Below, in pieces: positions 36,387 to 54,813 of a stretch of DNA of 64,000 nt (position 1 is the first letter of the stretch; each line of letters begins with the position of its first letter). Made by a program: the position numbers and the translations under genes. The notes under the pieces were generated by a model. The model did no database searches. It was given only the letters and a program-made list of their open reading frames with translations, and was not told where the DNA came from. Origin of the DNA: a virus; the IMG/VR virus record IMGVR_UViG_3300042397_001844, positions 1 to 64,000 of that record; one strand, written 5' to 3'.

Positions 36387-38468
36387 TTAATACGTTGTAT
36401 TAACAGTTATCCAAGTACTACCATTATGGAACATTAACCAAGATTGTCCAGCTGAGCCAGATGAGTATAACATACCAGCCTGCCCAGTTGGTGCGAATTG
36501 ATTTGGTATTAAATGAATTCCAGAATACAAAGCAATAGAACCACTAACCGTTAATATTTTTTGAGTTGGTTCAAATCTTAAATCAGCTTCAACAGCACCT
36601 GCCGTTGTTACATTATTATATGTTATTATACCATCATTAGTAGTTCCTGTTAAAGTTAAAAATCCACTCACACCACTTGTACCACTTGTACCACTCACAC
36701 CACTTGAACCACCACCACCTGTCAATCCAGCTGAACCATTTGTACCAGAAGTACCGTTTGAACCAGAAGTACCATTTGTACCTTCTACCCCACTTACTCC
36801 AGAAGTTCCCGATGTACCTGAAGTTCCATTAGAACCATTAGAACCAAATCCATTACTTCCACTTATTCCACTTGTACCAGATGTACCATCCGTTCCAATT
36901 CCATCATTTCCAGAAGTTCCCGATGTACCACCTGGCCCTTGCGTTCCACTAGTACCCGATGAACCATTTGAACCAGCAGCGGATGAAATACCCGATGAAC
37001 CATTTGTACCAGAAGTTCCACTACTACCAGGAATACCATTAAATCCACTCACACCAGATGTTCCAGATGTACCACCACCACCGCCGCCTGTTATAGTAAC
37101 TTGTGCTGTTGAATTACCCAAATCAGTAACAGTTGCTCCAGTAAATGTTAATATAGAAACATTAGATACACTATTAGGATTTGAATCCTCAACAGTTAAT
37201 TTTAAAGAAGATGTTGGTGTCTGAGAATTACTTCTTCCACCCACGGCACCTACCCAAACATATCCTTGTCTTAAAGATGCTGTCATAGAACCTAATACAT
37301 CCAAAGAACCTGTTATTTGTATATTATTTGTAGTTGCTACAACAGAACCCGTTGCTCTAAATATACCATCAGTTGTTGCAGTTCCCCCACCACTTCCAAA
37401 TGATGAAGTAGCTACTAAAGATGTTATATTATTAGGTCCACCTACCCAAGCATAACCTTCTCTCAAAGATGCAGTTAATGTTGAACTAATATTTAACGAA
37501 CCAGTTATGCGTTGATTACCATAAAAAGTATTTGCAGATGATGTTTGTGCAAATAAATTATAGTTTTGTATTTGTGTAGATGAACTTACAATTGCTGCCC
37601 CTTTTAAAGATGCAGTATATGCCAATACATTATTTATTAAAGTTGTATCGATGGATGTTCCAGATGAACCACTTATTCCTGATGTACCACTTGTACCGCT
37701 ACTTCCACTTACTCCAGATGTACCACTTGTACCGCTACTTCCACTTACTCCAGAAGTTCCCGAAGTTCCAAAATTTGTACCATCTAATCCGCTTGTACCA
37801 CTTGTACCACTTGTACCAGAAGTTCCGCTTATACCAGATGTACCAGATGTTCCCGAAGTTCCAGAAGAACCAGAAGTTCCTGATGAACCACTTATTCCAC
37901 TTGTACCGCTTGTACCAGAAGTTCCTGATGTACCTGATGTACCACTACTACCAGAAGTACCCGAAGTACCACTACTACCAGATGTACCACTACTACCAGC
38001 TTGTCCCGTAGCACCTGCTGTATTTATAAACCAAGATGTAAATGGTCCTCCACTACCAACAACAGAACCAACATTAACAACAAATTGACCCGTACCACTA
38101 TTATATGATGTAACGGTAGCTGTCATATAATTGCTACCATCTTTAGATATAATTGTTTGTTGACCAGGTGTCCAAGAAAGACCCGTACCTATTGTGAAGG
38201 TTTTAGCTCCAATTGTTATTGATTCCGATGTTGATGAAATTGATGTGAATAAATCACCTTTTACGCCGGATGTTCCAGATGAACCAGACGAACCACCACT
38301 TCCAGCCGTACCATTTGTACCATTAATTCCAGAAGTACCAGCAAGACCTGATGTTCCACTTGTACCATTAGTACCTGCACTTATTATACCTTCTAAGTAT
38401 GTAAGATTATCATCCATCTCCACTGCGGTAAGTGGAGAACCCTTTGATAGACGTTTAGTTAATGCCAT
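36387..38468 (-). CDS. fibre-like structural protein with (Gly-Thr/Ser-Ser)n collagen-like repeats
   Basis: N-terminal KGSPLTAVEMDDNL; long GTS/GSS triplet tracts. Confidence 0.75.
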   Translation of the reverse strand: MALTKRLSKGSPLTAVEMDDNLTYLEGIISAGTNGTSGTSGLAGTSGINGTNGTAGSGGSSGSSGTSGVKGDLFTSISSTSESITIGAKTFTIGTGLSWTPGQQTIISKDGSNYMTATVTSYNSGTGQFVVNVGSVVGSGGPFTSWFINTAGATGQAGSSGTSGSSGTSGTSGSSGTSGTSGTSGTSGTSGISGSSGTSGSSGTSGTSGTSGISGTSGTSGTSGTSGLDGTNFGTSGTSGVSGSSGTSGTSGVSGSSGTSGTSGISGSSGTSIDTTLINNVLAYTASLKGAAIVSSSTQIQNYNLFAQTSSANTFYGNQRITGSLNISSTLTASLREGYAWVGGPNNITSLVATSSFGSGGGTATTDGIFRATGSVVATTNNIQITGSLDVLGSMTASLRQGYVWVGAVGGRSNSQTPTSSLKLTVEDSNPNSVSNVSILTFTGATVTDLGNSTAQVTITGGGGGGTSGTSGVSGFNGIPGSSGTSGTNGSSGISSAAGSNGSSGTSGTQGPGGTSGTSGNDGIGTDGTSGTSGISGSNGFGSNGSNGTSGTSGTSGVSGVEGTNGTSGSNGTSGTNGSAGLTGGGGSSGVSGTSGTSGVSGFLTLTGTTNDGIITYNNVTTAGAVEADLRFEPTQKILTVSGSIALYSGIHLIPNQFAPTGQAGMLYSSGSAGQSWLMFHNGSTWITVNTTY
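37655..38005 (-). repeat. 9-nt (Gly-Thr/Ser-Ser) tandem repeat; further tracts near 36670-37075 and 38265-38375
   Basis: gtaccactt/gttccagaa-type units; boundaries approximate. Confidence 0.85.
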
Positions 38469-40308: not shown

Positions 40309-41691
40309 TTATTTAATTTTAAATACTTCGAATCTTTCTCTTGGTTTCCAATTTTCAAAAACCGATTCGATTCCGTTTTCTAATTGTTGACACATATTCT
40401 TATGTGTTAAACCCATATCGCCCATAAATGCTTCTCTACCTATCAATCCATTTGCTTTACGAACTTCTTTTGGTGTGTTGTACATTTCCTCAATTGCTTC
40501 AGCAACTTCCTCCACATCAACTCTATCATCCCAAATATAAGGTGTTGGTACTGAACCTGCTAATGCTAATGCTCTACTCCATACAGGTTTAACCCAAGGA
40601 CCAGGTTTAGCTTTTTGTTCCCACTTCCTCCACTCATGTAAAGAACCAATTTTAATGTAATCTTCGTGTGTTAATAATTTACCATCAACTTCAAATCCAC
40701 ATTGGTCTTGCAATCCACCAGTTACGTTTACAATGATGGGAGTTCCCGTCATTACCGATTCTGCAGTTGCCAATCCAAATCCTTCGTTGTTAGCAATATT
40801 GATTGTTACATCTGCTATATTGTAAATAAGATTTAATTCTTCTTGAGGTCTTCTCTTTTCAGAAAATATGATATTACAATTAGGTGCTACTGCATCAATT
40901 ACTGCTGGTAAATCAGTTCCATTCTCATCAACAGGTTGTGTGTGCATTACTAATACACATTTATCTGCTTTCTCCTTACCAATCTTATCACAAAACTTTT
41001 GGAAAGCTACGATAACATCAGCTGGTTGTTTTCTACGGATATTTCTATTACTCCAATATAATACGAAGTCATATTCCTTATCACCTAAAATTTCTTTACG
41101 GAACTCAGCAGGTACTTCAGTTGGTTTGTATAAATTAAAATCAATACCATGTGGTACATAATCAATTTGCCAATCTGCTTTTGGTTTCCACGTTGGTTTA
41201 GTATCTAATGCTGATAATCTTTTAATGATACCATATGTTTGACGAGAGATACAACCAATCCAATCACAACTTTCATAGAAGTTACGATTATATAATGGGT
41301 CTGGTAAATCATCCCAAATTGCGTAGAATAAAAGTGGGACATTTTGTCTGATTTCATGTTCGATATCATACAACCATGTCCAATAACGAGGGTCAGTAAA
41401 ATGTACAATTGCATCCGGCTTCTCTGCATTGATTAATTGTCTAATCAAATCAGCGTTACCATACCCATTCCAAGGTAAAATCTTTACATTAGCATCAGCG
41501 ATACCATATCTTTCTTGGATATCTTGGCTAACATCTAAAACCTTTCCTGCTTCGGGGTGATTAATTGCGGCTCCTACTTGAAACCAATCATATTTGTGTG
41601 CAGTTCCCAATACTAATTCTTTGGAAACGGTGGCAATACCACTTGCCATTCTTAAGTCATCTGATAATAACAGAATTTTCTTTTTTGCCAT
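40309..41691 (-). CDS. GT4-like glycosyltransferase
   Basis: PHGID, NRNIRRKQ, NEGFGLATAES..TGGLQDQ. Confidence 0.9.
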   Translation of the reverse strand: MAKKKILLLSDDLRMASGIATVSKELVLGTAHKYDWFQVGAAINHPEAGKVLDVSQDIQERYGIADANVKILPWNGYGNADLIRQLINAEKPDAIVHFTDPRYWTWLYDIEHEIRQNVPLLFYAIWDDLPDPLYNRNFYESCDWIGCISRQTYGIIKRLSALDTKPTWKPKADWQIDYVPHGIDFNLYKPTEVPAEFRKEILGDKEYDFVLYWSNRNIRRKQPADVIVAFQKFCDKIGKEKADKCVLVMHTQPVDENGTDLPAVIDAVAPNCNIIFSEKRRPQEELNLIYNIADVTINIANNEGFGLATAESVMTGTPIIVNVTGGLQDQCGFEVDGKLLTHEDYIKIGSLHEWRKWEQKAKPGPWVKPVWSRALALAGSVPTPYIWDDRVDVEEVAEAIEEMYNTPKEVRKANGLIGREAFMGDMGLTHKNMCQQLENGIESVFENWKPRERFEVFKIK

Positions 41692-45318: not shown

Positions 45319-46530
45319 TTATCTCCCTACTTCTGATAGGTATTTAGCTTTCATTTCTTCCCAACTAATTCCAATAGCATCTATATAGAATAAGTGTTCG
45401 GGTTTAATTCTTCCTTCATCGTGTAGTTTTGTATATCTACTGATTGCATGTTTCTTCCACCATTTGTTAATGTATTCAGTACCTTGCTTAAACTTATTTT
45501 TGATGATTAATTTATCTTCGGTAATTTCGTTACGAAGAAATTCATTTCCATTCTCATACATCATAGCTAAGTACACACCTCTTTTAAATCCGTGATGATA
45601 TTCAGTTGCCTTAATACCACACTCTTTGAATATCTTACCTAATATCTTTTGTTTGATACCACTAACAGGTCCGTTTCTTTCATAACCCATATTAGCTCCA
45701 TTACGGGCTCTTTCTTCGGTAATGTTTTCGGAATACCATTCTGCATGATTTTCTTTAATCCATTGATGCCACGGGTCATAGAATTTATCATCCGGCTTCA
45801 AACTAATCTTACCAGCCGATTCACCTAAAGTTTTGAATAAGGGGATACCATTATATTGAGAGTGAATACCATATAAAGATGTTGTACCTACTGCAATCAA
45901 TATATTCTTATACTTCTCTTTCCAATAGTTTCTAACTTCAGGTACAGTAGTCATCATAGCGATTAATTTACCACCTAAAAAGTTATAACCTAATGGTTGA
46001 GTACATACAATAGTAGAAGCAATAGTAGTGTTGTTTAACTTACCATCAACAAACTTATTATCTTTAGTCCAACCAATGAAGTTATCTCTAACTCCCATAG
46101 CGGTTACATCGGATGCTAATGAAATTTGTCCTAATAGTTTTCCACTCACTCTATCCTTTACATTAATCTTTACATTACGGCCAGGGTTTGCTGTAAAATC
46201 CATTGTGTGAATCATACGTCTTACCGCTGCCCATTTAGTAGATTCTTTTGGGTCATCCACAATCTCAACGTAAGGGTCTAACGATTCAATTTCTTTTATC
46301 GTTAGCTCCTTATTGTTGATATCAGTTGGTTTCCATTGAGAATCATAATAAGATGCTATTTGGGCTTTTGCTTGAATCATTGTAGGTTCTTGCAATTCTA
46401 CCCACTTCTTATACAAAGTTTGTTCTTGTACAGACATTGTCATAAGGTAATCCATATTTTCTATTAACTTTGATTTTTCAGATTCAAAGTCAAAGACAGG
46501 TTTTTGTGGTTCAGTATCCCAAAAGCTCAT
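45319..46530 (-). CDS. DUF4338/DruA-like protein
   Basis: PGRNVK..GKLLGQISLAS..RDNFIGW, PLGYNFLGGKLIAM, TTSLYG..SQYN..LGESAG. Confidence 0.65.
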   Translation of the reverse strand: MSFWDTEPQKPVFDFESEKSKLIENMDYLMTMSVQEQTLYKKWVELQEPTMIQAKAQIASYYDSQWKPTDINNKELTIKEIESLDPYVEIVDDPKESTKWAAVRRMIHTMDFTANPGRNVKINVKDRVSGKLLGQISLASDVTAMGVRDNFIGWTKDNKFVDGKLNNTTIASTIVCTQPLGYNFLGGKLIAMMTTVPEVRNYWKEKYKNILIAVGTTSLYGIHSQYNGIPLFKTLGESAGKISLKPDDKFYDPWHQWIKENHAEWYSENITEERARNGANMGYERNGPVSGIKQKILGKIFKECGIKATEYHHGFKRGVYLAMMYENGNEFLRNEITEDKLIIKNKFKQGTEYINKWWKKHAISRYTKLHDEGRIKPEHLFYIDAIGISWEEMKAKYLSEVGR

Positions 46531-46536
46531 ATTATA

Positions 46537-46716
46537 TTATTTTACGATTGCTCTAATTTGATTAGTTTCTATTGATGGTACATAAATGTATATCTCCTTA
46601 CCAGCATTTTCAATAAGAAATTTTTCTAAATTCAAATTCCATGTTTCAGTTTGATATAACTTACCATCTATTTCAAATACAGGTTCACTTATTAATTTAT
46701 AATGTTGGTTTGCCAT
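46537..46716 (-). CDS. 59-aa hypothetical protein (absent from ORF track)
   Basis: ATG 46716 to TAA, MANQHYKLISEPVFEIDG...; fills the gap between flanking genes almost exactly. Confidence 0.65.
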   Translation of the reverse strand: MANQHYKLISEPVFEIDGKLYQTETWNLNLEKFLIENAGKEIYIYVPSIETNQIRAIVK

Positions 46717-46717
46717 A

Positions 46718-47413
46718 TTACTTAATTTCTACTAAATAGTAATTTGAAGTGTAGTCACCATCAACGAATGCTACGTGCGATAATCCCTTAGATGAGATTT
46801 TCAATGAAGATGATTTAGAACCTTTGTTAGCCATTAAGATAGCTTTCAAATACTTTGCAGAAAATGCAATTGGTTCAATATCTTCTTTAGCAGTTGCTTC
46901 TACTGCAATTGAAATTCGGTTTGAGTTGATTGAAGAATATCCTAAGATAATTTCAGCTTTACCAGCCTTAACCGTAAATGTGAATGTATCTGAATCAGAT
47001 AATACACCTTTTGATTTGATGAACTTATTTACAAAGTCATCATCTAAGCTTACTTCCGTATCAAATGAAGGTAATGCTTTTAAATCAGGTACTGCAGGAA
47101 TCACCGATGGTGCTGCTAACATATATTGTACCTTTGTTTTCTTATCAGAAAACTTCAATGCTCCAGTAACTTCTTCTACTGCAATTGTGTCATCCAATAC
47201 ACTCAATAATCCTTTTAATTGAGATGTAGTGTAAATACCAAACTCACCGCTTGGAAATTCACCACCTACTACTGTAACATCACCTAATAAGGTTTTGTCA
47301 TCTGAAATCATTCTTACCGATAAGTTCTTGTCATCGGATTTTACCATAACGGATTCAATCTCACCACCTAAGTTGTAACGATTTACGAAACCATCAAATT
47401 TGCTTTTGTTCAT
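46718..47413 (-). CDS. sliding clamp (gp45-like)
   Basis: EFGIY, size of about 230 aa, next to PolB; start at ATG 47413 downstream of the promoter. Confidence 0.75.
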   Translation of the reverse strand: MNKSKFDGFVNRYNLGGEIESVMVKSDDKNLSVRMISDDKTLLGDVTVVGGEFPSGEFGIYTTSQLKGLLSVLDDTIAVEEVTGALKFSDKKTKVQYMLAAPSVIPAVPDLKALPSFDTEVSLDDDFVNKFIKSKGVLSDSDTFTFTVKAGKAEIILGYSSINSNRISIAVEATAKEDIEPIAFSAKYLKAILMANKGSKSSSLKISSKGLSHVAFVDGDYTSNYYLVEIK

Positions 47414-47449
47414 AATTGAAATTTTAAATTTATGTTTTAATTTGTTATA

Positions 47450-47481
47450 CAAATATACGAAAAATACCTGAAACTACCAAA
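47450..47481 (-). promoter_or_regulatory. Bacteroidota-type promoter
   Basis: TTTG-N20-TATATTTG. Confidence 0.75.
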
Positions 47482-47486
47482 TATTC

Positions 47487-50009
47487 TTAAAAAGAAAAGA
47501 ATTGTTCAGCGGTTTTTTGTGAAGAAAGTACTGCACCCCACCCTAAAGCCCCATAGAAGTCCTCTAATTTCTTCAATAATTCCCTTTCGAAGATTTTATC
47601 ATAATCGATATACGTCCTCACCAAGTCCATTATTTCATCAGGGTCATCATGTCCTTTGAATCCAACCGCATCCAATCCATATGGGTTTTGTTTCAAATAT
47701 ACCCACTTAATCTTATCACCATCTCTCATTGGAGCGTGCTTAGCTGCACATTTGAAGTGAACTAATAATTGGTTATGTGCAATTGCTGCTTTAACGTGCG
47801 CCGGAGTTCCACTATTAAATTGGAACATTGCTCTATTATCTTTCTTCTTTGGAATATATTTTGATAATTCTTTTACTGCTGAGTTTTTAGCAATTGAAGT
47901 TACATCCATATTAACCAAGTCCTTTTTGAAATCATATATCCTGTCAGTTAGAACCATTTCAGTTTCACCTTGTAGAATTGAAATAAGGATACCACTCATA
48001 AACTTACGGAATTGTGCGGGGTACGATGAACGAACCACATCCAATCCTTTAACTTGCAACGTATCACAAGGAATACCATTCTCCGCAATAATCCATTGAG
48101 CGTATCTTTTCTTAGCAATCCAAATACCACTTCTACTTACGAATTCTTTTTTGATTTGGAATCTATGTTTTGTTTTATCAACATTAAATACTTTCTCAGC
48201 CAATACATCATAAAACTTATTTAAAAAGTCTTGTGTTTCACCAGCAATAGCATCCACCTTTAATGCAATTTCTGCATCAGTCAAATTTCTCCAATCTTTA
48301 TAACGATGGTCTAAGATAGGTACTGCTGAAAAGAATACGGAATCCGTATCAATGTATATGTTAAAGTCTTGTCCGTTTGTTCCTAATTCTTTATTGTATT
48401 TAATGTTAGCCATATCAGCCGTAGATTTAATTACAGTCTGACCTGTTGTTGTTACAGCCTCAGCGTTGTCCACATCATAGAAACGGAAAGCCGGCAAACC
48501 TAACACACCATACAAAGAGTTCAATAAGATTTTTTGTACCAACTGTCTTTTTTTATAGAAAGCGTATTTCTCTTTGTCACCACTCTCACCATACTTCTTC
48601 TCTAATGCTCTAAACTCCACACGTTGTTTGAACCATAGGTCTAAGATATCAGGAATACAACCTACTTTATCAGTAGTGTAAAGAACTCCGTTAGATGATA
48701 TAGCGTATTTACTTTCATCCAACAATTTTTTAAGATTATCTTTTGTAATACTTTTATCTCCTAAAAAGAAAGTATCAATTTCACCCTTCATAAACTTTTG
48801 TGCATCCCAATTATCAATCTTACCAACTTTAGTTTCTGGTGAAATGTTAGTTGTCATAATGATTGAAGGATATAGTGAAGTTAAATCCAAGTCATATATC
48901 CATTCGTACTTACCAACGATAGGTGCCTTCACATATGCTCCAATGAATTTCTCTTGGTCATTATCTCTAAGTGCTTGCATTCTTTCTTGTCTATCCGCAG
49001 GTTTGTTAGGAGCTACAATGTTTCTTCTCTTAAGGTAACATAACAATGCACCCTCTAAGTATTTCGATGAATAAACAAAGTCCTCATATGGAACGTGTCC
49101 AGCGTGACAGATACCTCTAGCCGTATCAATGAATTGTAACTTCTTATCCATATCAGCTACTAACTGAACATCGACTAAGTTATACTCAATAAACTTTTCA
49201 ATATCATCTTTGAATAAATCATCTAAGTTACCAGAGTACTCAATCTTACCTCTACCCAATTCCTTCATCGCAATACTATCCAAACGATAGTTATCTAATT
49301 CCGAATAGGTGAAGTTTTTATATAAAGCTAGGTAATCTAAATAAGATACGCCGGCCATATAGAATCTCTTACGATATGGAGACCAAAAACATTCACCTAT
49401 TGGGCTTAATCTATTAGCGTGTTTAACACCTAATAGTCTTTTAATACGATTATATAAATAAGGAGTATCGAAGTTATCAATGTTCCAACCAGTTACGATT
49501 GTTGGATTGATGTATTCATACAATTCTAAATATTTCATACACATATCCCTCTCATCTTTGAAAGGAATTACAGTACGATTGCCGGTCTTCTTCTCACTCA
49601 TTTTACCAGCTTTGTCCATAATCAAAACCCAATAATGATTAGTAGCAGAATCATGCAAACCAATTGCCGTTAATTCATTTTCTGATTTTTCTACATCAGG
49701 CAAACCACTATCCATTTCACACTCAATATCATATGTAAGCGTAACGTGTCCTTCTGATGGTATATCTGAATCAGTATATGTATCAACCAAAACTCTAGTG
49801 GTTTCGGCTACATCGGATTCAAATAAATTCGGGTCATCTTTTGTGAATTTAAAAATCTTATCTAACTTATCTCCATACAAAGATGTGTATTGTCCTCTTT
49901 GTGCTTTTTCATAAGCATACCTAACATACGGAAAGGTTCTATATCCTAACTTATCATCCCAAATGTGTACTAAATTTCTTTCTCTCTGATAATAAATATT
50001 TTGATACAT
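47487..50009 (-). CDS. family B DNA polymerase
   Basis: DIE exonuclease, DLTSLYPS, KILLNSLYG, YIDTDS, KKRY. Confidence 0.97.
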   Translation of the reverse strand: MYQNIYYQRERNLVHIWDDKLGYRTFPYVRYAYEKAQRGQYTSLYGDKLDKIFKFTKDDPNLFESDVAETTRVLVDTYTDSDIPSEGHVTLTYDIECEMDSGLPDVEKSENELTAIGLHDSATNHYWVLIMDKAGKMSEKKTGNRTVIPFKDERDMCMKYLELYEYINPTIVTGWNIDNFDTPYLYNRIKRLLGVKHANRLSPIGECFWSPYRKRFYMAGVSYLDYLALYKNFTYSELDNYRLDSIAMKELGRGKIEYSGNLDDLFKDDIEKFIEYNLVDVQLVADMDKKLQFIDTARGICHAGHVPYEDFVYSSKYLEGALLCYLKRRNIVAPNKPADRQERMQALRDNDQEKFIGAYVKAPIVGKYEWIYDLDLTSLYPSIIMTTNISPETKVGKIDNWDAQKFMKGEIDTFFLGDKSITKDNLKKLLDESKYAISSNGVLYTTDKVGCIPDILDLWFKQRVEFRALEKKYGESGDKEKYAFYKKRQLVQKILLNSLYGVLGLPAFRFYDVDNAEAVTTTGQTVIKSTADMANIKYNKELGTNGQDFNIYIDTDSVFFSAVPILDHRYKDWRNLTDAEIALKVDAIAGETQDFLNKFYDVLAEKVFNVDKTKHRFQIKKEFVSRSGIWIAKKRYAQWIIAENGIPCDTLQVKGLDVVRSSYPAQFRKFMSGILISILQGETEMVLTDRIYDFKKDLVNMDVTSIAKNSAVKELSKYIPKKKDNRAMFQFNSGTPAHVKAAIAHNQLLVHFKCAAKHAPMRDGDKIKWVYLKQNPYGLDAVGFKGHDDPDEIMDLVRTYIDYDKIFERELLKKLEDFYGALGWGAVLSSQKTAEQFFSF

Positions 50010-51125
50010 CTATGCTTTTAATTTTATATTTAATTGTTGTAACATTCTACCTTCGTTTTCTGAAAGTTCTAATGCTCTTTCTATACTTTTAATCTCTCTA
50101 TCCTTTCTATAATTATCGTCATCCAATATTTTATCTAGCATTTCAAACAGGTCTTTTTTAAATTTAAAAAACAATCCGTTTGGTTCTATTTCCTGATAAC
50201 ATAAAGATTCTTGATATATCATTGGAGTACCATTCATCAAACAATCCGTTGCTGATACACTCCAACCATAATTCGTTTGCCTCATTTGAATACCGACTTT
50301 ACATTGTTGTAATCTACCATAGTATTCATGCTTTGGAAGTTTAGTTGAATCAATCCAGCTATGTTCCGGCGTTCCTTTTAATTGAGGCACCCATACACTA
50401 AAATCTTGTCTACGTTCTCTATATTCCTCCATCAATTTAATGAAAGTAGGGTATCCTTTATAAGCTGCTGCTCTATGATTGAATACTATAATATTTCGTT
50501 TTTCTTCTGATGCTGATTCAATTACATTTTGTTTTGGTAGTCCCAAATTCCATACCACCAAAATATCATCTAACTTTTTAACAAACTCATCATTGAACCA
50601 AATCTTAGCTTCTTCCAATACTCTATTCTTTTGGTCTTGTGTATTAAGGTAACAAGTTTCCATTTGAGATATACCTAATAGTTCAATAGGCATCCATCTC
50701 CATTTATTCTTTCTATCTTCCGCATTGCAGGTTTTCATTTCCCACCAATGGCAATATCCAATAATTTTTGTGTTGAAATCGTTTTTGTATCTACCAACTT
50801 GAGGCCAATCAGGCAAATGTGAGTAGATAACATCATACTCTAATGTTTCTAATAATCGATTGAAGTCGGGCGGATAGGTACGCATTTTAATCATATCGCC
50901 AGAGAAGGGTAAGATATGCTGCTTTACATTTAGTAAATTCAGTTTCCTAACCGGCTCTGGTAATATAATATTCCAAAAGTATTCACCGTGTTGCTCTAAA
51001 CCTTTTATGTGGTTGTAGATAACATCAACGAATGAATCCTTTTCTATATTAGCGGAATTGGTGATATTAGGTATCACCAAAACACGCCTTGCTTCTTTAC
51101 TTAATTGTCCTTCCCAAAATGTCAT
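50010..51125 (-). CDS. GT-B glycosyltransferase, possibly DNA-modifying
   Basis: VFNHRAAAYKG, WSVSATDCLMNGTP; abuts PolB. Confidence 0.65.
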   Translation of the reverse strand: MTFWEGQLSKEARRVLVIPNITNSANIEKDSFVDVIYNHIKGLEQHGEYFWNIILPEPVRKLNLLNVKQHILPFSGDMIKMRTYPPDFNRLLETLEYDVIYSHLPDWPQVGRYKNDFNTKIIGYCHWWEMKTCNAEDRKNKWRWMPIELLGISQMETCYLNTQDQKNRVLEEAKIWFNDEFVKKLDDILVVWNLGLPKQNVIESASEEKRNIIVFNHRAAAYKGYPTFIKLMEEYRERRQDFSVWVPQLKGTPEHSWIDSTKLPKHEYYGRLQQCKVGIQMRQTNYGWSVSATDCLMNGTPMIYQESLCYQEIEPNGLFFKFKKDLFEMLDKILDDDNYRKDREIKSIERALELSENEGRMLQQLNIKLKA

Positions 51126-51135
51126 TAATTATTAT

Positions 51136-52611
51136 TTAATTTAAAAGTGATTTGTACTCATCACCACTCATATTCAACTTTTTAAGATTATGAGATTTGC
51201 TAGTTACTACAAGATTATCATATTCAGTAACACCACCTTTTTTCTTTCCCCAACTTCTAGGAATATAATGGTCACCAACCAACTTCTTATTATCCAAAGG
51301 TTGTCCATCGTAGAAATCAATTCTACCTTGCTCTTCCCATTTTCTGATAATTTGGTCTCTAGTAAAATCACGATTATCAATTTCAATTACCCCAAAAGAA
51401 TCCATATTTTCTTTTAATTCCTTATCCAATATATAAGTGATTGTACCAATTGCTTTTGGATTTTTACCACCAAATAGTTTATTGAATGGCTCCATTTGCT
51501 CATCATCAGTACCAAACATTAATTCATCAGCATACAACTTACCACCAGTCTTTTTATCGGTATTACTCCATTTATCATATACTTCAAAAAACTTATTTAC
51601 ATAGGTTTCTATAATAAGCTTTCCGTATTTGTTTTTTAACTCATAACCATATAAAATTAACATTTGAGAAAACATTGGTACAAGTTTATATTTTCTATCA
51701 GATGCAACAGATGTAATGATATCATAAGAAAATTGAATTAGTGGTTCTAAAACCGATTCTTTATAATCTTCAAATTGTTCTTCGGTAGATAAGATACCAT
51801 TGGTGGCCTGAGCCTTTGTAATCCAATCGGTGTGTTTTCCTTGTGTAAGTCCATTACGATAACCATTATGTTGTAACATAATCATTTCGGAAACAAACTC
51901 ATCTACTTCCATACGGCCGTTGATTACGAACCCTTCGGAGAAATTAGATAATTTCCATTTTTTCTTCTTTCCACTATCAATTAATGTTCTATCAAATAGT
52001 TTATGCTTATTTTCAAATCTTGATATATTACGAATATATTCAGATAATCTACCACGAATAGCGTTTCTCTTTTCTTGTGGTTTCATTTCATTTGAATTAT
52101 TCAAAACATTAATGAATAAATCAGCCGTTTGAGAATCTGATAAGTTTTCGTACCACTTACAGCTAATTCTATAAGAAAGTATTGTTTGATATAAATTTGG
52201 TTCGTTTTGTCTAATCCAATCTATATTCTTTTCGCGCAAATCAATACCATTGATTATAAAAGAGTCATGTTTTGGTAAACAAAACTCACCATTTATAAAA
52301 TCCAAAATAGATGTTATTCTTTGCTGCCCGTCAATAAGTTCAAAGATAAAAGATTTTCCTTTCTTAACAACTCTAATATGAATTTCAGGAATCTTTTTAT
52401 ACGAATTGAGAATAACAGTTAGCATTATACCTTGTTTAAAGGTAAGAGATGCTACTTTTTCTCTTTGATACTCCCTAGCCCCAGTTTCAATTTTTGGAGT
52501 TTTAGAGTCTGTTAAATACGAAATACTAACATCTCCATCGTAAGATGTTGGTTTGTTTGTTTGGCCAAAGCTTTCTTCGGCGATTTCACAATAAATGAAA
52601 TTTTCAGTCAT
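51136..52611 (-). CDS. DUF262 (ParB/DGQQR) plus HNH nuclease, GmrSD-like
   Basis: EYQRE, IDGQQRITS, LF..LN; C-terminal DHYIPRS..GG..DNLVV..HN. Confidence 0.8.
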   Translation of the reverse strand: MTENFIYCEIAEESFGQTNKPTSYDGDVSISYLTDSKTPKIETGAREYQREKVASLTFKQGIMLTVILNSYKKIPEIHIRVVKKGKSFIFELIDGQQRITSILDFINGEFCLPKHDSFIINGIDLREKNIDWIRQNEPNLYQTILSYRISCKWYENLSDSQTADLFINVLNNSNEMKPQEKRNAIRGRLSEYIRNISRFENKHKLFDRTLIDSGKKKKWKLSNFSEGFVINGRMEVDEFVSEMIMLQHNGYRNGLTQGKHTDWITKAQATNGILSTEEQFEDYKESVLEPLIQFSYDIITSVASDRKYKLVPMFSQMLILYGYELKNKYGKLIIETYVNKFFEVYDKWSNTDKKTGGKLYADELMFGTDDEQMEPFNKLFGGKNPKAIGTITYILDKELKENMDSFGVIEIDNRDFTRDQIIRKWEEQGRIDFYDGQPLDNKKLVGDHYIPRSWGKKKGGVTEYDNLVVTSKSHNLKKLNMSGDEYKSLLN

Positions 52612-52700
52612 AGTTTAAAATTTGCGATAATATCTTAACCTCTAATTTATAATTTTTTTGGGTTTTTAGATATCATCAGTTTTATAAATTGTTTACTATG

Positions 52701-52732
52701 TAAAGGTACGAATAATTTGTGAATTCGCCAAA
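52701..52732 (-). promoter_or_regulatory. Bacteroidota-type promoter
   Basis: TTTG-N20-TACCTTTA. Confidence 0.6.
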
Positions 52733-52780
52733 TCTTTTTTACTATTTATTATAACTGATTGATTATCAATGAGTTATATA

Positions 52781-53581
52781 TTACCAAAAATTTTCAGTAC
52801 CTTCCGGTACTTCGTATGTAGTTAGATGATGTACCACTTCTGTGTTGTATGAAGCGGTATCTTTTGGATACGGCCTGATTTCGTGCTTTAATCGTTTCAT
52901 CAAATCCTTCTTTTCTTTTTTATCTTGCGCAAGTATTTGAACATATCTATGTTTTGGTGGTTCTTCCCTTCTCCAAAACTCTTTATATCCTTGCTTACCA
53001 ATTTCCATTTGTAAGTGTGCTAAGTTACCACTACCCCACATTGAAAATACAGTTCTACTATGAATCCATTGATACGGGTCTTTGTGTAATGATATACCCC
53101 AATTTGGCATCAATGCAATATCCGTAGATAATCCTTGATAAATCCAATTGGTAGCTTGGTATATTCCTCCCAAGTGAGCTTGTCCGTTATCAGCGTATGA
53201 AAGTAATACCTTAATATTCTTATCATGCTCTTTTAACCATTTGAAAGATTGTCCTAATGCAAATGATTCAATATTAGAACCATAACCATCATCACAATAT
53301 AAACGTGTCAATTCTAAAATGTTATCTTTGGTCAATCCTTCACAAATAGAAGTGGATGCTTTTGCTCCAACAGGAAACCCATAGATTAAACAACCTATAA
53401 GTTTATCACCATCAAAGGTATTAGCATCTTCTGATTTGTAATATATTCCAATTGCATATCTACAAGCTGTCCAAGCGTGAGTATAGTGCTTCTTAACAAT
53501 AATATCTTTAGCGATACTCTTTGCTATTGGAGCTACATATACTTTGGATGTATCACAATAATTTTTACCTTCTACCTTCAT
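52781..53581 (-). CDS. Mom-family (GNAT) DNA adenine-modification protein, paralogue 2
   Basis: HY, LELTRL, SYAD..HLGGIYQATNWIYQG, KHRY. Confidence 0.8.
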   Translation of the reverse strand: MKVEGKNYCDTSKVYVAPIAKSIAKDIIVKKHYTHAWTACRYAIGIYYKSEDANTFDGDKLIGCLIYGFPVGAKASTSICEGLTKDNILELTRLYCDDGYGSNIESFALGQSFKWLKEHDKNIKVLLSYADNGQAHLGGIYQATNWIYQGLSTDIALMPNWGISLHKDPYQWIHSRTVFSMWGSGNLAHLQMEIGKQGYKEFWRREEPPKHRYVQILAQDKKEKKDLMKRLKHEIRPYPKDTASYNTEVVHHLTTYEVPEGTENFW

Positions 53582-53819
53582 TCTTTTTTGCTTGTTTTGC
53601 TTTTTCTAAAATAGATAAACTTCTCTCAGCCTTTGCTAATTTTTGTCTTTGTTTCAAATCTTTTACATAACCAGCAGGATATTTGTTCTCTACTGATATA
53701 GGTCCATTTGGGAATTTATCCAAATCGTATTTCCAAATTGATTCACATCCATCATCATCTTTGTAGATATGTTCAAATTTACGTGGTTTATCCTTAGCGC
53801 TGGGTTCTACTCTTGCCAT
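53565..53819 (-). CDS. hypothetical protein
   Basis: 84-aa ORF with its own promoter. Confidence 0.6.
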   Translation of the reverse strand: MARVEPSAKDKPRKFEHIYKDDDGCESIWKYDLDKFPNGPISVENKYPAGYVKDLKQRQKLAKAERSLSILEKAKQAKKNEGRR

Positions 53820-53826
53820 AACATTA

Positions 53827-53858
53827 CAAATATACGAAATTAATCTGAAACTACCAAA
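53827..53858 (-). promoter_or_regulatory. Bacteroidota-type promoter
   Basis: TTTG-N20-TATATTTG. Confidence 0.7.
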
Positions 53859-54613
53859 TCTATCGGCTCCATTTTATGAACTTCATCGATAATATCCAAC
53901 TCTACCTTTGGATATGGGAATACCTCATGTTTAAGCGATTTTAAGAGGGCTTTACGTTCCTTTTTATCTTTGGTTAGAATATACACATAGCGATGCTTAC
54001 GGGGTTCTCTTTTAATCCAGAATGGGCTTGTAACCATTGTCTGAATTATCTTTGGGTCATTCGTTCCGTACTTCACATAGGATGTCCGAGAATGATGCCA
54101 TTCATCATCTTCACTCCATTTGAAACTCCAACTATCTGACCATCTGATTTTGTTACCTTGATATATCCAATTAGTAGCTTGATATACCGTTCCTAAGTGC
54201 CCAGCGTTTGGGTCTGAATAAGATATTAGGGCTTTGATACGAGGTACATTAGTTCTTAACCATTCAAAAGATTGTCCAACGAACCAACTCTCAATGTTAC
54301 TACCATATCCATCGAATACGAATAGTCGTGTTAATTCTAATACACCATCTCTAGGAAGTAATTCGGAAATTGATGCGCCGGCATTTCTACCAACCGGGTC
54401 ACCATAACAGGCAACTCCAACTAATTGTTCATTCACTCCACTAAAGAATGAATGTTCATCATCGGATATATAAAATAATCCAATGGCATAGGATACCTTT
54501 GTCCATATTCCACTATAATGGTTATTGACAATGATATCCTTTGCTATGTTCTTATTAATCTCTCTAATTGAAAATTTAGAGATATCGCAATATTGTTTAC
54601 CTTCTACTTTCAT
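53840..54613 (-). CDS. Mom-family (GNAT) DNA adenine-modification protein, paralogue 1
   Basis: HYS, LELTRL, SYSDP..HLGTVYQATNWIYQG, KHRY. Confidence 0.8.
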   Translation of the reverse strand: MKVEGKQYCDISKFSIREINKNIAKDIIVNNHYSGIWTKVSYAIGLFYISDDEHSFFSGVNEQLVGVACYGDPVGRNAGASISELLPRDGVLELTRLFVFDGYGSNIESWFVGQSFEWLRTNVPRIKALISYSDPNAGHLGTVYQATNWIYQGNKIRWSDSWSFKWSEDDEWHHSRTSYVKYGTNDPKIIQTMVTSPFWIKREPRKHRYVYILTKDKKERKALLKSLKHEVFPYPKVELDIIDEVHKMEPIDLVVSD

Positions 54614-54813
54614 AAGCTACCACTCCAAAAATGATTTAAATGAGTCCAAGTTTTACGTTGAATTATCTTCAATACATTTGATGGTGATACCTTATTGTTT
54701 TGGGCAATAACTTTAATATTACGATGACCCATTCTCCATAGGTCTCTAATGATTAAAACTTGTTCCTCTGTCAGTTTTGCTGACGGGTGTTGCTGCCCTC
54801 TTAAAATTGCCAT
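54610..54813 (-). CDS. small HTH protein resembling the C-terminal domain of HNH homing endonucleases
   Basis: RGQQHPSAKLTEEQV..IA..VS..I..RKTWTH. Confidence 0.7.
   Translation of the reverse strand: MAILRGQQHPSAKLTEEQVLIIRDLWRMGHRNIKVIAQNNKVSPSNVLKIIQRKTWTHLNHFWSGSL

Follow-up and report, generated by a model that had tools for sequence, protein, structure and literature searches.

Does the replication block of an uncultured phage hold one pathway for building an unusual DNA base, or several units that lie side by side? The question is raised by positions 45,319 to 54,613 of a 64,000-nucleotide stretch (hereafter the window), which is the first 64 kb of the 72.9-kb IMG/VR viral record IMGVR_UViG_3300042397_001844, estimated to be ~38% complete. 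The original prediction, made from the letters alone, saw here a multi-enzyme DNA hypermodification module in which two Mom-like GNATs, a GT-B glycosyltransferase (GT371) abutting the family B DNA polymerase (PolB), a DUF262-HNH nuclease and a DruA-like gene would jointly acylate and glycosylate bases during replication. The identities of these genes held up in our analysis, which lends no support, however, to a single pathway of all five enzymes. The region is more probably a mosaic of three units set in the conserved T4-type replisome block of an uncultured, T4-like, aquatic phage: a pair of Mom enzymes, a cargo slot, and the DruA-like gene together with GT371. The last two genes form a real, conserved and previously undescribed module, and the finding that their linkage is conserved is new here.

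A DruA-like protein and a glycosyltransferase are inherited together

Related loci were taken as the best 80 of 123 viral contigs with GT371 homologues, and 53 of these 80 extend far enough for the presence of the DruA-like gene to be judged. A full DruA-like gene accompanies GT371 in 52 of the 53 loci: the two are adjacent in 26, have one cargo gene between them in seven, and show the GT371–PolB–clamp–DruA arrangement of the window in 19. The only judgeable locus without a full DruA-like gene, L074, retains its first 45% (181 residues, L074:14302-14850), which may reflect truncation of the gene or a fault of assembly. The 3' neighbour of GT371 is PolB, within 60 nt, in 65 of the 80 loci, the clamp loader in 11 and another gene in one, and three contigs end too soon. 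In one sub-clade the pair has moved as a unit, giving the order PolB–clamp–DruA–GT371–clamp loader. Many relatives show the order Mom–Mom–DruA–GT–PolB, and without exception the pair is inside the replisome block.

The two proteins are also well conserved in sequence. The DruA-like protein is 63–100% identical across phages whose PolB are only 48–62% identical, and in the more distant relatives GT371 is 65–80% identical where PolB is 54–62%. Homologues of GT371 number 603 in a large protein collection, and tblastn with GT371 against 50,697 isolate phage genomes gave no match. In contig L037 the DruA-like protein and GT371 are encoded by separate genes (373 and 370 residues). A predicted complex of the two proteins scored 0.00 in a run without controls, which speaks neither for nor against binding. 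Among the papers listed for DruA and DUF4338, none on a DruA–glycosyltransferase pair turned up.

The membership of the DruA-like protein in the DruA (DUF4338) family, proposed in the original prediction, is clear from its Pfam score (Table 1) and from its match to the PADLOC DruA model PDLC00002 (1.2e-15). When its predicted model (predicted local distance difference test, pLDDT, 93.9) was aligned by VIA with 48,161 PDB representatives, the best match was Mu Mom (8bv8_B; Z 10.0, root-mean-square deviation (rmsd) 3.6, 164 residues aligned), followed by GNAT acetyltransferases at Z 8.8 and lower. Nineteen chains had a Z of at least 8, and almost all of the matches listed were GNAT-superfamily proteins; Foldseek against the PDB returned no match at E <= 1e-3, only matches with E of at least 2e-3. 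We regard the predicted GNAT fold as firm. That the model is closest to Mom is tentative, since the lead of Mu Mom is a modest 1.2 Z units. DUF4338 is termed a GNAT domain in PMC10853773, and PMC12801897 describes as structurally similar to Mu Mom a cyanophage protein that tblastn identified as H95, one of the DruA-like homologues. According to the Phold preprint (10.1101/2025.08.05.668817), DruA-like genes occur in six Synechococcus phages.

The family is large, a protein search having returned 963 representative clusters at E <= 0.001, and its members have near-invariant basic and aromatic residues together with a glycine-rich loop, as is typical of enzymes. Among 23 longer homologues that were scanned, eight carry an N-terminal ParB_N domain, and one each a UDG, a GIY-YIG/NUMOD3 endonuclease and a DUF3102 domain; one of the ParB_N–DruA genes adjoins a gene for a DnaJ+DUF5906 helicase-like protein. 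The fusion query P0249 found 0 loci in viral contigs and 11 in metagenome contigs, the whole fusion occurring only in L098, and the query P0243 found eight related loci. DNA is a plausible substrate because DruA domains are fused elsewhere to ParB or UDG domains, and these fusions point to DNA as the presumable site of action.

With DruA of type I Druantia the phage protein thus shares its family and, by PMC10853773, the GNAT-type fold of DUF4338. The phage gene differs in its setting: it stands among replisome genes (beside clamp, PolB, dUTPase and clamp loader), has a glycosyltransferase gene as its partner, and is without DruB–E neighbours. None of five other proteins (four of the region and the cargo protein of contig L004) gave a PADLOC Druantia match, DruB–E not having been searched genome-wide. 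The Koonin-lab YprA preprint contains no statement on DruA.

GT371 itself stays below the Pfam cut-offs (GT4, Glyco_transf_4, 19.6 against 28.5 bits; GT1, Glycos_transf_1, 18.4 against 26.4), and an NCBIfam scan of GT371, the DruA-like protein, Mom1 and Mom2 gave no matches. The AlphaFold model of GT371 (pLDDT 83.1) nevertheless has a complete GT-B fold (Foldseek E 8.5e-12), so the enzyme abutting PolB was rightly named. VIA aligned 330 of its 371 residues with the mannosyltransferase 7qsg_A (Z 26.7, rmsd 3.5), and 880 of 998 chains had a Z of at least 8. R218, K223 and D294 are invariant among the homologues, as are His/Trp clusters in the N-terminal, acceptor-side domain. Reading by eye, we take the R218...K223 stretch and D294 to be GT4 donor-binding residues; in a by-eye alignment with the EX7E motif, Y286 stands at the first Glu and D294 at the second. 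As far as the model goes, GT371 is a GT4-like, retaining-type GT-B enzyme.

Two Mom-family enzymes in tandem

Both GNATs that had been called Mom-like belong to the Mom family by a wide margin (Table 1). Mom1 matches phrog_1384 at 2e-47 and the Mu Mom structure PDB 8bv8 at 4.6e-11, and Mom2 matches phrog_1384 at 1e-46. The two proteins are 49% identical, and their alignment diverges most in the helical insertion.

The acylation from acyl-CoA on which the earlier view of Mom drew is outdated: according to PMC13219725, Mu Mom moves glycine from Gly-tRNA(Gly) onto the N6 of adenine in double-stranded DNA, and a rearrangement on the base follows. The same paper reports R111 and S124 as essential, a drastically lowered activity for H58A, Y59A, W48A, Y159A and W181A, and the helical insertion as indispensable. 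We aligned Mu Mom with both Moms of the window and 65 distinct Mom-family open reading frames (ORFs) from related contigs (n = 68). All 68 sequences have the equivalents of R111, S124 and Y159; those of H58 and Y59 occur in 65, the other three being gaps, and that of W181 in 60; W48 is found in Mu Mom alone (1/68), Mom1 having N and Mom2 S at this position. Since Mom1 and Mom2 each keep the equivalents of R111, S124, H58, Y59, Y159 and W181, both look active. With family scores far above the Pfam cut-off and the two essential residues in place, tRNA-dependent adenine-N6 modification by the pair is a well supported prediction.

The likeness to Mu Mom (PDB 8bv8; PF25680) extends from the family match of ~150 bits to most of the key residues and to residues across the region of the helical insertion. 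It has a counterpart in gene position, since com overlaps the start of mom in Mu and the small gene s67 overlaps the start of Mom1 by 4 nt here; s67 lies upstream of the Mom gene or genes in nearly every related locus and might be regulatory, but it is helix-turn-helix-like, whereas Com is a zinc finger. Unlike the Mu gene, the Moms of the window are two tandem paralogues in the replication module of a lytic T4-like phage, with W48 not kept and with distinct C-terminal motifs. In all 43 Mom2-type ORFs (homologues in L004–L083) the C-terminus is an acidic stretch followed by [FY]W, and Mom1-type proteins have a K-[LM]-[ED]-P-I motif near the C-terminus instead. Single-stranded DNA-binding (SSB)-type proteins dock on their replisome partners through acidic, aromatic-ended tails, which the Mom2 tail resembles.

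Mom genes are present in all five near-complete relatives, and four of these have two copies. The small gene s84, which lies between the Mom genes, is kept in loci L004–L020 and L074, and scans of Pfam, PHROG and NCBIfam gave no family match for its product. Contig L006, otherwise 91–94% identical to the window, has an insertion of ~2.2 kb between Mom1 and s84 (L006:3416-5610), which points to a possible second cargo slot within the Mom unit. The word 'paralog' does not occur in the main text of PMC13219725, whose supplementary list of homologues may include this clade or tandem paralogues.

An exchangeable cargo slot upstream of GT371

Contigs L004, L009 and L006 are 90–98% identical to the window on both flanks of the nuclease gene. 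Coming from the Mom side, nucleotide similarity to them ends at ~52752, ~52778 and ~52689 and restarts at ~51143, ~51137 and ~51141, respectively; the breakpoints thus lie just past the stop codon of Mom2 and just ahead of the start codon of GT371, and in place of the intervening 1.6 kb these contigs have unrelated DNA. In 73 of the 80 related loci an ORF ends directly upstream of GT371. The occupant of this position is a DruA-like gene in 30 loci, a gene of a family of 415–440 residues in 17, a DUF262-HNH variant in 13, a member of a family of 393–404 residues in five and Mom2 in one, and the last seven are different singletons. When Pfam was run on ten of the slot proteins, it recognised a GHKL ATPase in one, a lone HNH domain in another and GmrSD_N with HNH in two, leaving six without a match.

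The slot upstream of GT371 is hypervariable. Phages that are otherwise nearly identical have unrelated genes at this place, which makes the DUF262-HNH nuclease a swappable cassette and no member of the pathway; the most fitting reading of the gene in the window is that of a conflict or selfish gene. The gene-neighbourhood analysis proposed with the original prediction bears out the linkage of the DruA-like gene with GT371 and fails to do so for the nuclease.

The assignment of the nuclease as such probably stands, although its GmrSD_N score falls just short of the cut-off (Table 1): its HNH part matches phrog_1035 (5e-5) and the HNH region of a Cas9d model (2.6e-5), and its homologues in the slots of L064 and L075 score high enough for GmrSD_N and have Pfam HNH domains. 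The 491-residue protein carries a DGQQR stretch and, towards the C-terminus, a D-H...N...H-N stretch, which we take to be the DUF262 and HNH motifs. In this DGQQR stretch and in the order DUF262-then-HNH it resembles the GmrSD/BrxU-type type IV enzymes; it differs from them in being phage-encoded and in lying in an exchangeable slot, besides scoring just below the GmrSD_N cut-off.

Two other occupants may be recorded here. The family of 415–440 residues (L015:8724-10001 and 16 further loci) is the commonest one apart from the DruA-like genes and has no Pfam match. In L004, whose phage is 95–98% identical to that of the window, the cassette gene (L004:1151-2359) encodes, in place of the DUF262-HNH nuclease, a 402-residue protein that had no Pfam, NCBIfam or PADLOC match and an N-terminus that is ParB-like by eye only.

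Genomic context and relatives

All genes of the region lie on the minus strand, where they had been predicted, and the scores of their matches are far from what chance would give (Table 1). By profile matches, the surrounding replication module is of the T4 type, with a gp32-like protein, RecA/UvsX, a 5'-3' exonuclease, DnaB helicase, ribonucleotide reductase and thioredoxin, and with PolB, clamp, clamp loader, dUTPase and a PD-(D/E)XK nuclease. The clamp gene had not been named in the original prediction. Scans of Pfam, PHROG and NCBIfam gave no family match for s59.

Table 1. Positions in the window of the genes and of the cassette discussed in the text, with the match or observation on which each entry is based
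Feature	Coordinates	Strand	Description	Basis
s67	54610..54813	-	small helix-turn-helix-like protein, 67 residues	MarR 0.007 (weak), phrog_20467 2.4e-4
Mom1	53840..54613	-	Mom-family GNAT, 257 residues; predicted aminoacyl-tRNA-dependent adenine-N6 DNA transferase	PF25680 149.5 bits, cut-off 27.1
s84	53565..53819	-	small basic protein between the Mom genes	window-type arrangement only
Mom2	52781..53581	-	Mom-family GNAT, 266 residues	PF25680 152.6 bits, cut-off 27.1
Cargo cassette	51144..52751	-	exchangeable; holds DUF262 + HNH nuclease here	similarity breakpoints against near-identical phages
Nuclease	51136..52611	-	GmrSD-like DUF262-HNH nuclease, 491 residues	GmrSD_N 31.6 bits, just below cut-off 33.2
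GT371	50010..51125	-	clade-specific GT-B (GT4-like) glycosyltransferase, 371 residues	AlphaFold fold; stop codon abuts PolB start (50010/50009)
PolB	47487..50009	-	family B DNA polymerase (T4 gp43-like), context gene	PF00136 1e-38, PF03104 9e-22
Clamp	46718..47452	-	sliding clamp (gp45-like), 244 residues, between PolB and DruA-like	phrog_223 7e-13
s59	46537..46716	-	small ORF between clamp and DruA-like gene	few close relatives only
DruA-like	45319..46530	-	DruA-like (DUF4338) GNAT-fold protein, 403 residues, partner of GT371	PF14236 69.6 bits, cut-off 27

Among named phages, the nearest is Microcystis phage Mel-JY01, with a PolB 52% identical to that of the window. Its equivalent block reads thioredoxin – two small genes – PolB – clamp – clamp loader and contains no Mom, GT371 or DruA-like gene, which marks these genes as added to a conserved backbone. 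The region had no megablast match among 50,697 phage records. No tRNA genes were found in the 64-kb window, and promoter and terminator scans stayed at the level of shuffled sequence (44 found against 53.8 expected, and 3 against 3.8, respectively).

Downstream of the replication module, and apart from it as the original prediction had said, lies a glycan-synthesis island of ~39 kb (window 2436-41691), which is unusually large for a phage. It encodes many GT2, GT4, GT11 and GT25 glycosyltransferases, NAD-dependent epimerases/dehydratases, FkbM and other methyltransferases, and in addition a HAD-nucleotidyltransferase fusion, a PfkB kinase, a UDP-GlcNAc 2-epimerase, an AMP-ligase and a short-chain reductase. 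Within or beside the island are genes for a 693-residue protein with collagen triple-helix repeats (36387-38468; PF01391, 8e-31) and for a 594-residue subtilase (608-2392; PF00082, 4e-36). A GT4-type glycosyltransferase gene that adjoins the PD-(D/E)XK nuclease (40309-41691) matches PF20706, 'GT4 in conflict systems', at 26.9 bits against a cut-off of 26; it is kept in relatives and in Mel-JY01 and scores 29.3 bits in the relative G004.

G004, which is 100% complete, has 23 tRNA genes (L109:128-9780) covering 19 amino acids (no Gln) and including two tRNA-Gly genes. This set fits a tRNA-dependent Mom, and such sets are also common in large phages. A tmRNA-like gene lies near the tRNA array, and a gene for a radical-SAM protein adjoins the clamp loader gene. 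Further genes of G004 (L109–L111) encode an S-adenosylmethionine lyase, a GroEL-type chaperonin, ThyX, a non-specific endonuclease and a 1089-residue outer-membrane beta-barrel protein with carboxypeptidase-regulatory-like domains, presumably of the SusC/TonB-receptor type that is typical of Bacteroidota. The best isolate match of Mom1 is in a Polaribacter phage (44% identity), which together with the gene set of G004 gives a hint of a Bacteroidota host.

Three units or one pathway

The explanation that we favour assigns separate tasks to the three units. In the first, s67–Mom1–s84–Mom2, the two Mom enzymes would most likely accept from charged tRNA an aminoacyl group, which is glycine in Mu, and transfer it to the N6 of adenine in double-stranded phage DNA, where the adduct would rearrange to N6-carbamoylmethyl-adenine, as with Mu Mom, and protect the phage DNA from restriction. 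Diverged as they are in overall sequence, in the insertion and in the tail, the two enzymes probably serve different sequence contexts or donors. The second unit is the cargo slot, whose gene differs among near-identical phages and whose nuclease would here most likely attack foreign (differently modified) DNA or else be a selfish endonuclease, and would not be a biosynthetic step. The third, the co-inherited DruA-like GNAT and GT371, most likely carries out a second, two-step modification, acyl plus glycosyl, on a substrate that it encounters at or close to replication; among the candidates for this substrate DNA, if unproven, comes first, and the chances that it is the target are nearly even. 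Gene identities, folds, the catalytic residues of Mom, the boundaries of the cassette and the joint occurrence and adjacency of the pair are observed; the donors, the acceptors and any coupling of the Mom unit with the pair are what we infer.

Several findings weigh against this account of the pair. No fused DruA–GT protein was found in a search for longer forms of GT371, which is weak evidence. The DruA-like and Mom profiles share no sequence similarity (hhalign probability 0.2), so that their kinship is a structural one only, and the essential residues of Mom are not evidently kept in the DruA-like protein. A distant clade (DruA 43–45% identical) keeps clamp–DruA–clamp loader and two nearby Mom-family genes with no GT371, and in Pelagibacter phages the DruA-like gene is without a GT neighbour. 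The top structural neighbours of GT371 are generic small-molecule, lipid and glycan GT4 enzymes, with BshA, MshA, PimB' and PglA lying, like 7qsg, within Z 24–27 in VIA. Like the T4 alpha- and beta-glucosyltransferases (AGT and BGT), which glucosylate 5-hydroxymethylcytosine, GT371 has a GT-B fold and is encoded among the replication genes of a T4-like phage, as is T4 DNA alpha-glucosyltransferase. It resembles GT4 retaining enzymes, however, and AGT (1xv5) is only a middling match, at Foldseek rank 19 (TM 0.50) and outside the VIA top 50; among the BFVD matches of GT371 a 'DNA alpha-glucosyltransferase' comes only at rank 15. Unlike in T4, no hydroxymethyl-pyrimidine route (no dCMP/dUMP hydroxymethylase) was found in the relatives, which leaves no DNA acceptor hydroxyl in sight. 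Four of the five near-complete relatives have one thymidylate-synthase-family gene each and the fifth, G004, has ThyX; the one PF00303 match of a relative that was tested is a ThyA equivalog (348.7 bits, cut-off 325), and TGT/DpdA was found in none of the five. The glycan island in the same window makes a non-DNA role natural for a further glycosyltransferase.

Against the three-unit account stands the single replication-coupled pathway, by which Mom and/or the DruA-like protein would (amino)acylate a base, GT371 would glycosylate it, giving a hypermodified base not described before, and the DUF262-HNH nuclease would destroy unmodified DNA. The contiguity of Mom1–Mom2–DruA–GT371–PolB in many relatives, the constant place of the pair in the replisome block and the T4 precedent of a DNA glucosyltransferase gene among replication genes all speak for it, as do the rank of Mom as best structural match of the DruA-like protein, the fusions of DruA domains with ParB_N or UDG, and the tail of the Mom2-type proteins, which might dock on a replisome protein. 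We still consider it unlikely: the nuclease is swappable, the known Mom product (glycyl rearranged to carbamoylmethyl) has no hydroxyl for glycosylation, GT371 shows no fold-level preference for DNA glycosyltransferases, one clade has DruA and Mom with no GT371, and in some genomes (G003) the Mom genes are ~10 kb away from the pair. Nothing shows that the pair builds on the Mom adduct. We would also give little credence to an as yet undescribed two-layer hypermodification of DNA by Mom1–Mom2–DruA–GT371, with a GNAT of the Mom or DruA type placing an (amino)acyl group on the base, possibly from a hydroxy-amino-acyl-tRNA of the phage's own tRNA set, and GT371 glycosylating it at the fork. What survives of the proposed module is the linked DruA-like/GT371 core, often contiguous with the Moms upstream of PolB. 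Of the proposed chemistry, modification of adenine by the Mom pair is, judging by sequence, almost certain, whereas nothing shows GT371 acting on DNA.

It is also conceivable, though on balance doubtful, that the pair acts off DNA and acylates and glycosylates a protein (e.g., of the replisome or virion), a glycan or a small molecule. Its position near the thioredoxin and ribonucleotide reductase genes recalls the GT4 and GNAT steps of thiol synthesis (MshA/MshD, BshA), and BshA and MshA (Z ~24) and other small-molecule GT4 enzymes are among the top neighbours of GT371, whose BFVD matches include actinophage glycosyltransferases; the heavy investment of the phage in glycan synthesis and the lack of a DNA acceptor route in the relatives are in line with it. 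The differences among the top GT4 matches, however, are below 3 Z units and therefore carry no information on specificity, and the region and the first 90 kb of G004 revealed neither the cysteine ligase nor the deacetylase that thiol synthesis would require. The pair, moreover, is always embedded between PolB, clamp and clamp loader, apart from the glycan island, and DruA domains are fused elsewhere to DNA-binding or DNA-repair domains. A decoy or mimic of type I Druantia DruA, serving anti-defence next to an unrelated glycosyltransferase gene, would suit a true member of the DruA family, phages often carrying homologues of defence proteins, as the Synechococcus phages in the Phold preprint (10.1101/2025.08.05.668817) do with DruA-like genes. 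Such a decoy would hardly be expected to remain so similar across phages with diverged polymerases, to hold a fixed position in the replisome block, to belong to so widespread a family, to keep the residues of an enzyme and to be linked so tightly to GT371, and we regard it as very improbable. The three-unit explanation, with the pair as a second modification system beside the Moms, accordingly remains the one that we prefer.

Implications

The use of charged tRNA by Mom for the decoration of DNA was shown only in 2026 (PMC13219725), and the tandem, diverged Mom paralogues of this abundant uncultured lineage are a natural setting in which to test the evolution of donor and site specificity. 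The cargo slot, for its part, is a clean case of the exchange of a nuclease-gene cassette between near-identical phages.

Hundreds of environmental phage contigs carry, in their replisome block, the strongly conserved and uncharacterised pair of DruA-like protein and GT371. The substrate of the pair would reveal either a new modification of DNA (or of the replisome) or the first biochemical role for the DruA family, and such a role would bear on the mechanism of type I Druantia. Should the two-layer modification prove true after all, this would make DruA of type I Druantia, too, an enzyme that marks DNA.

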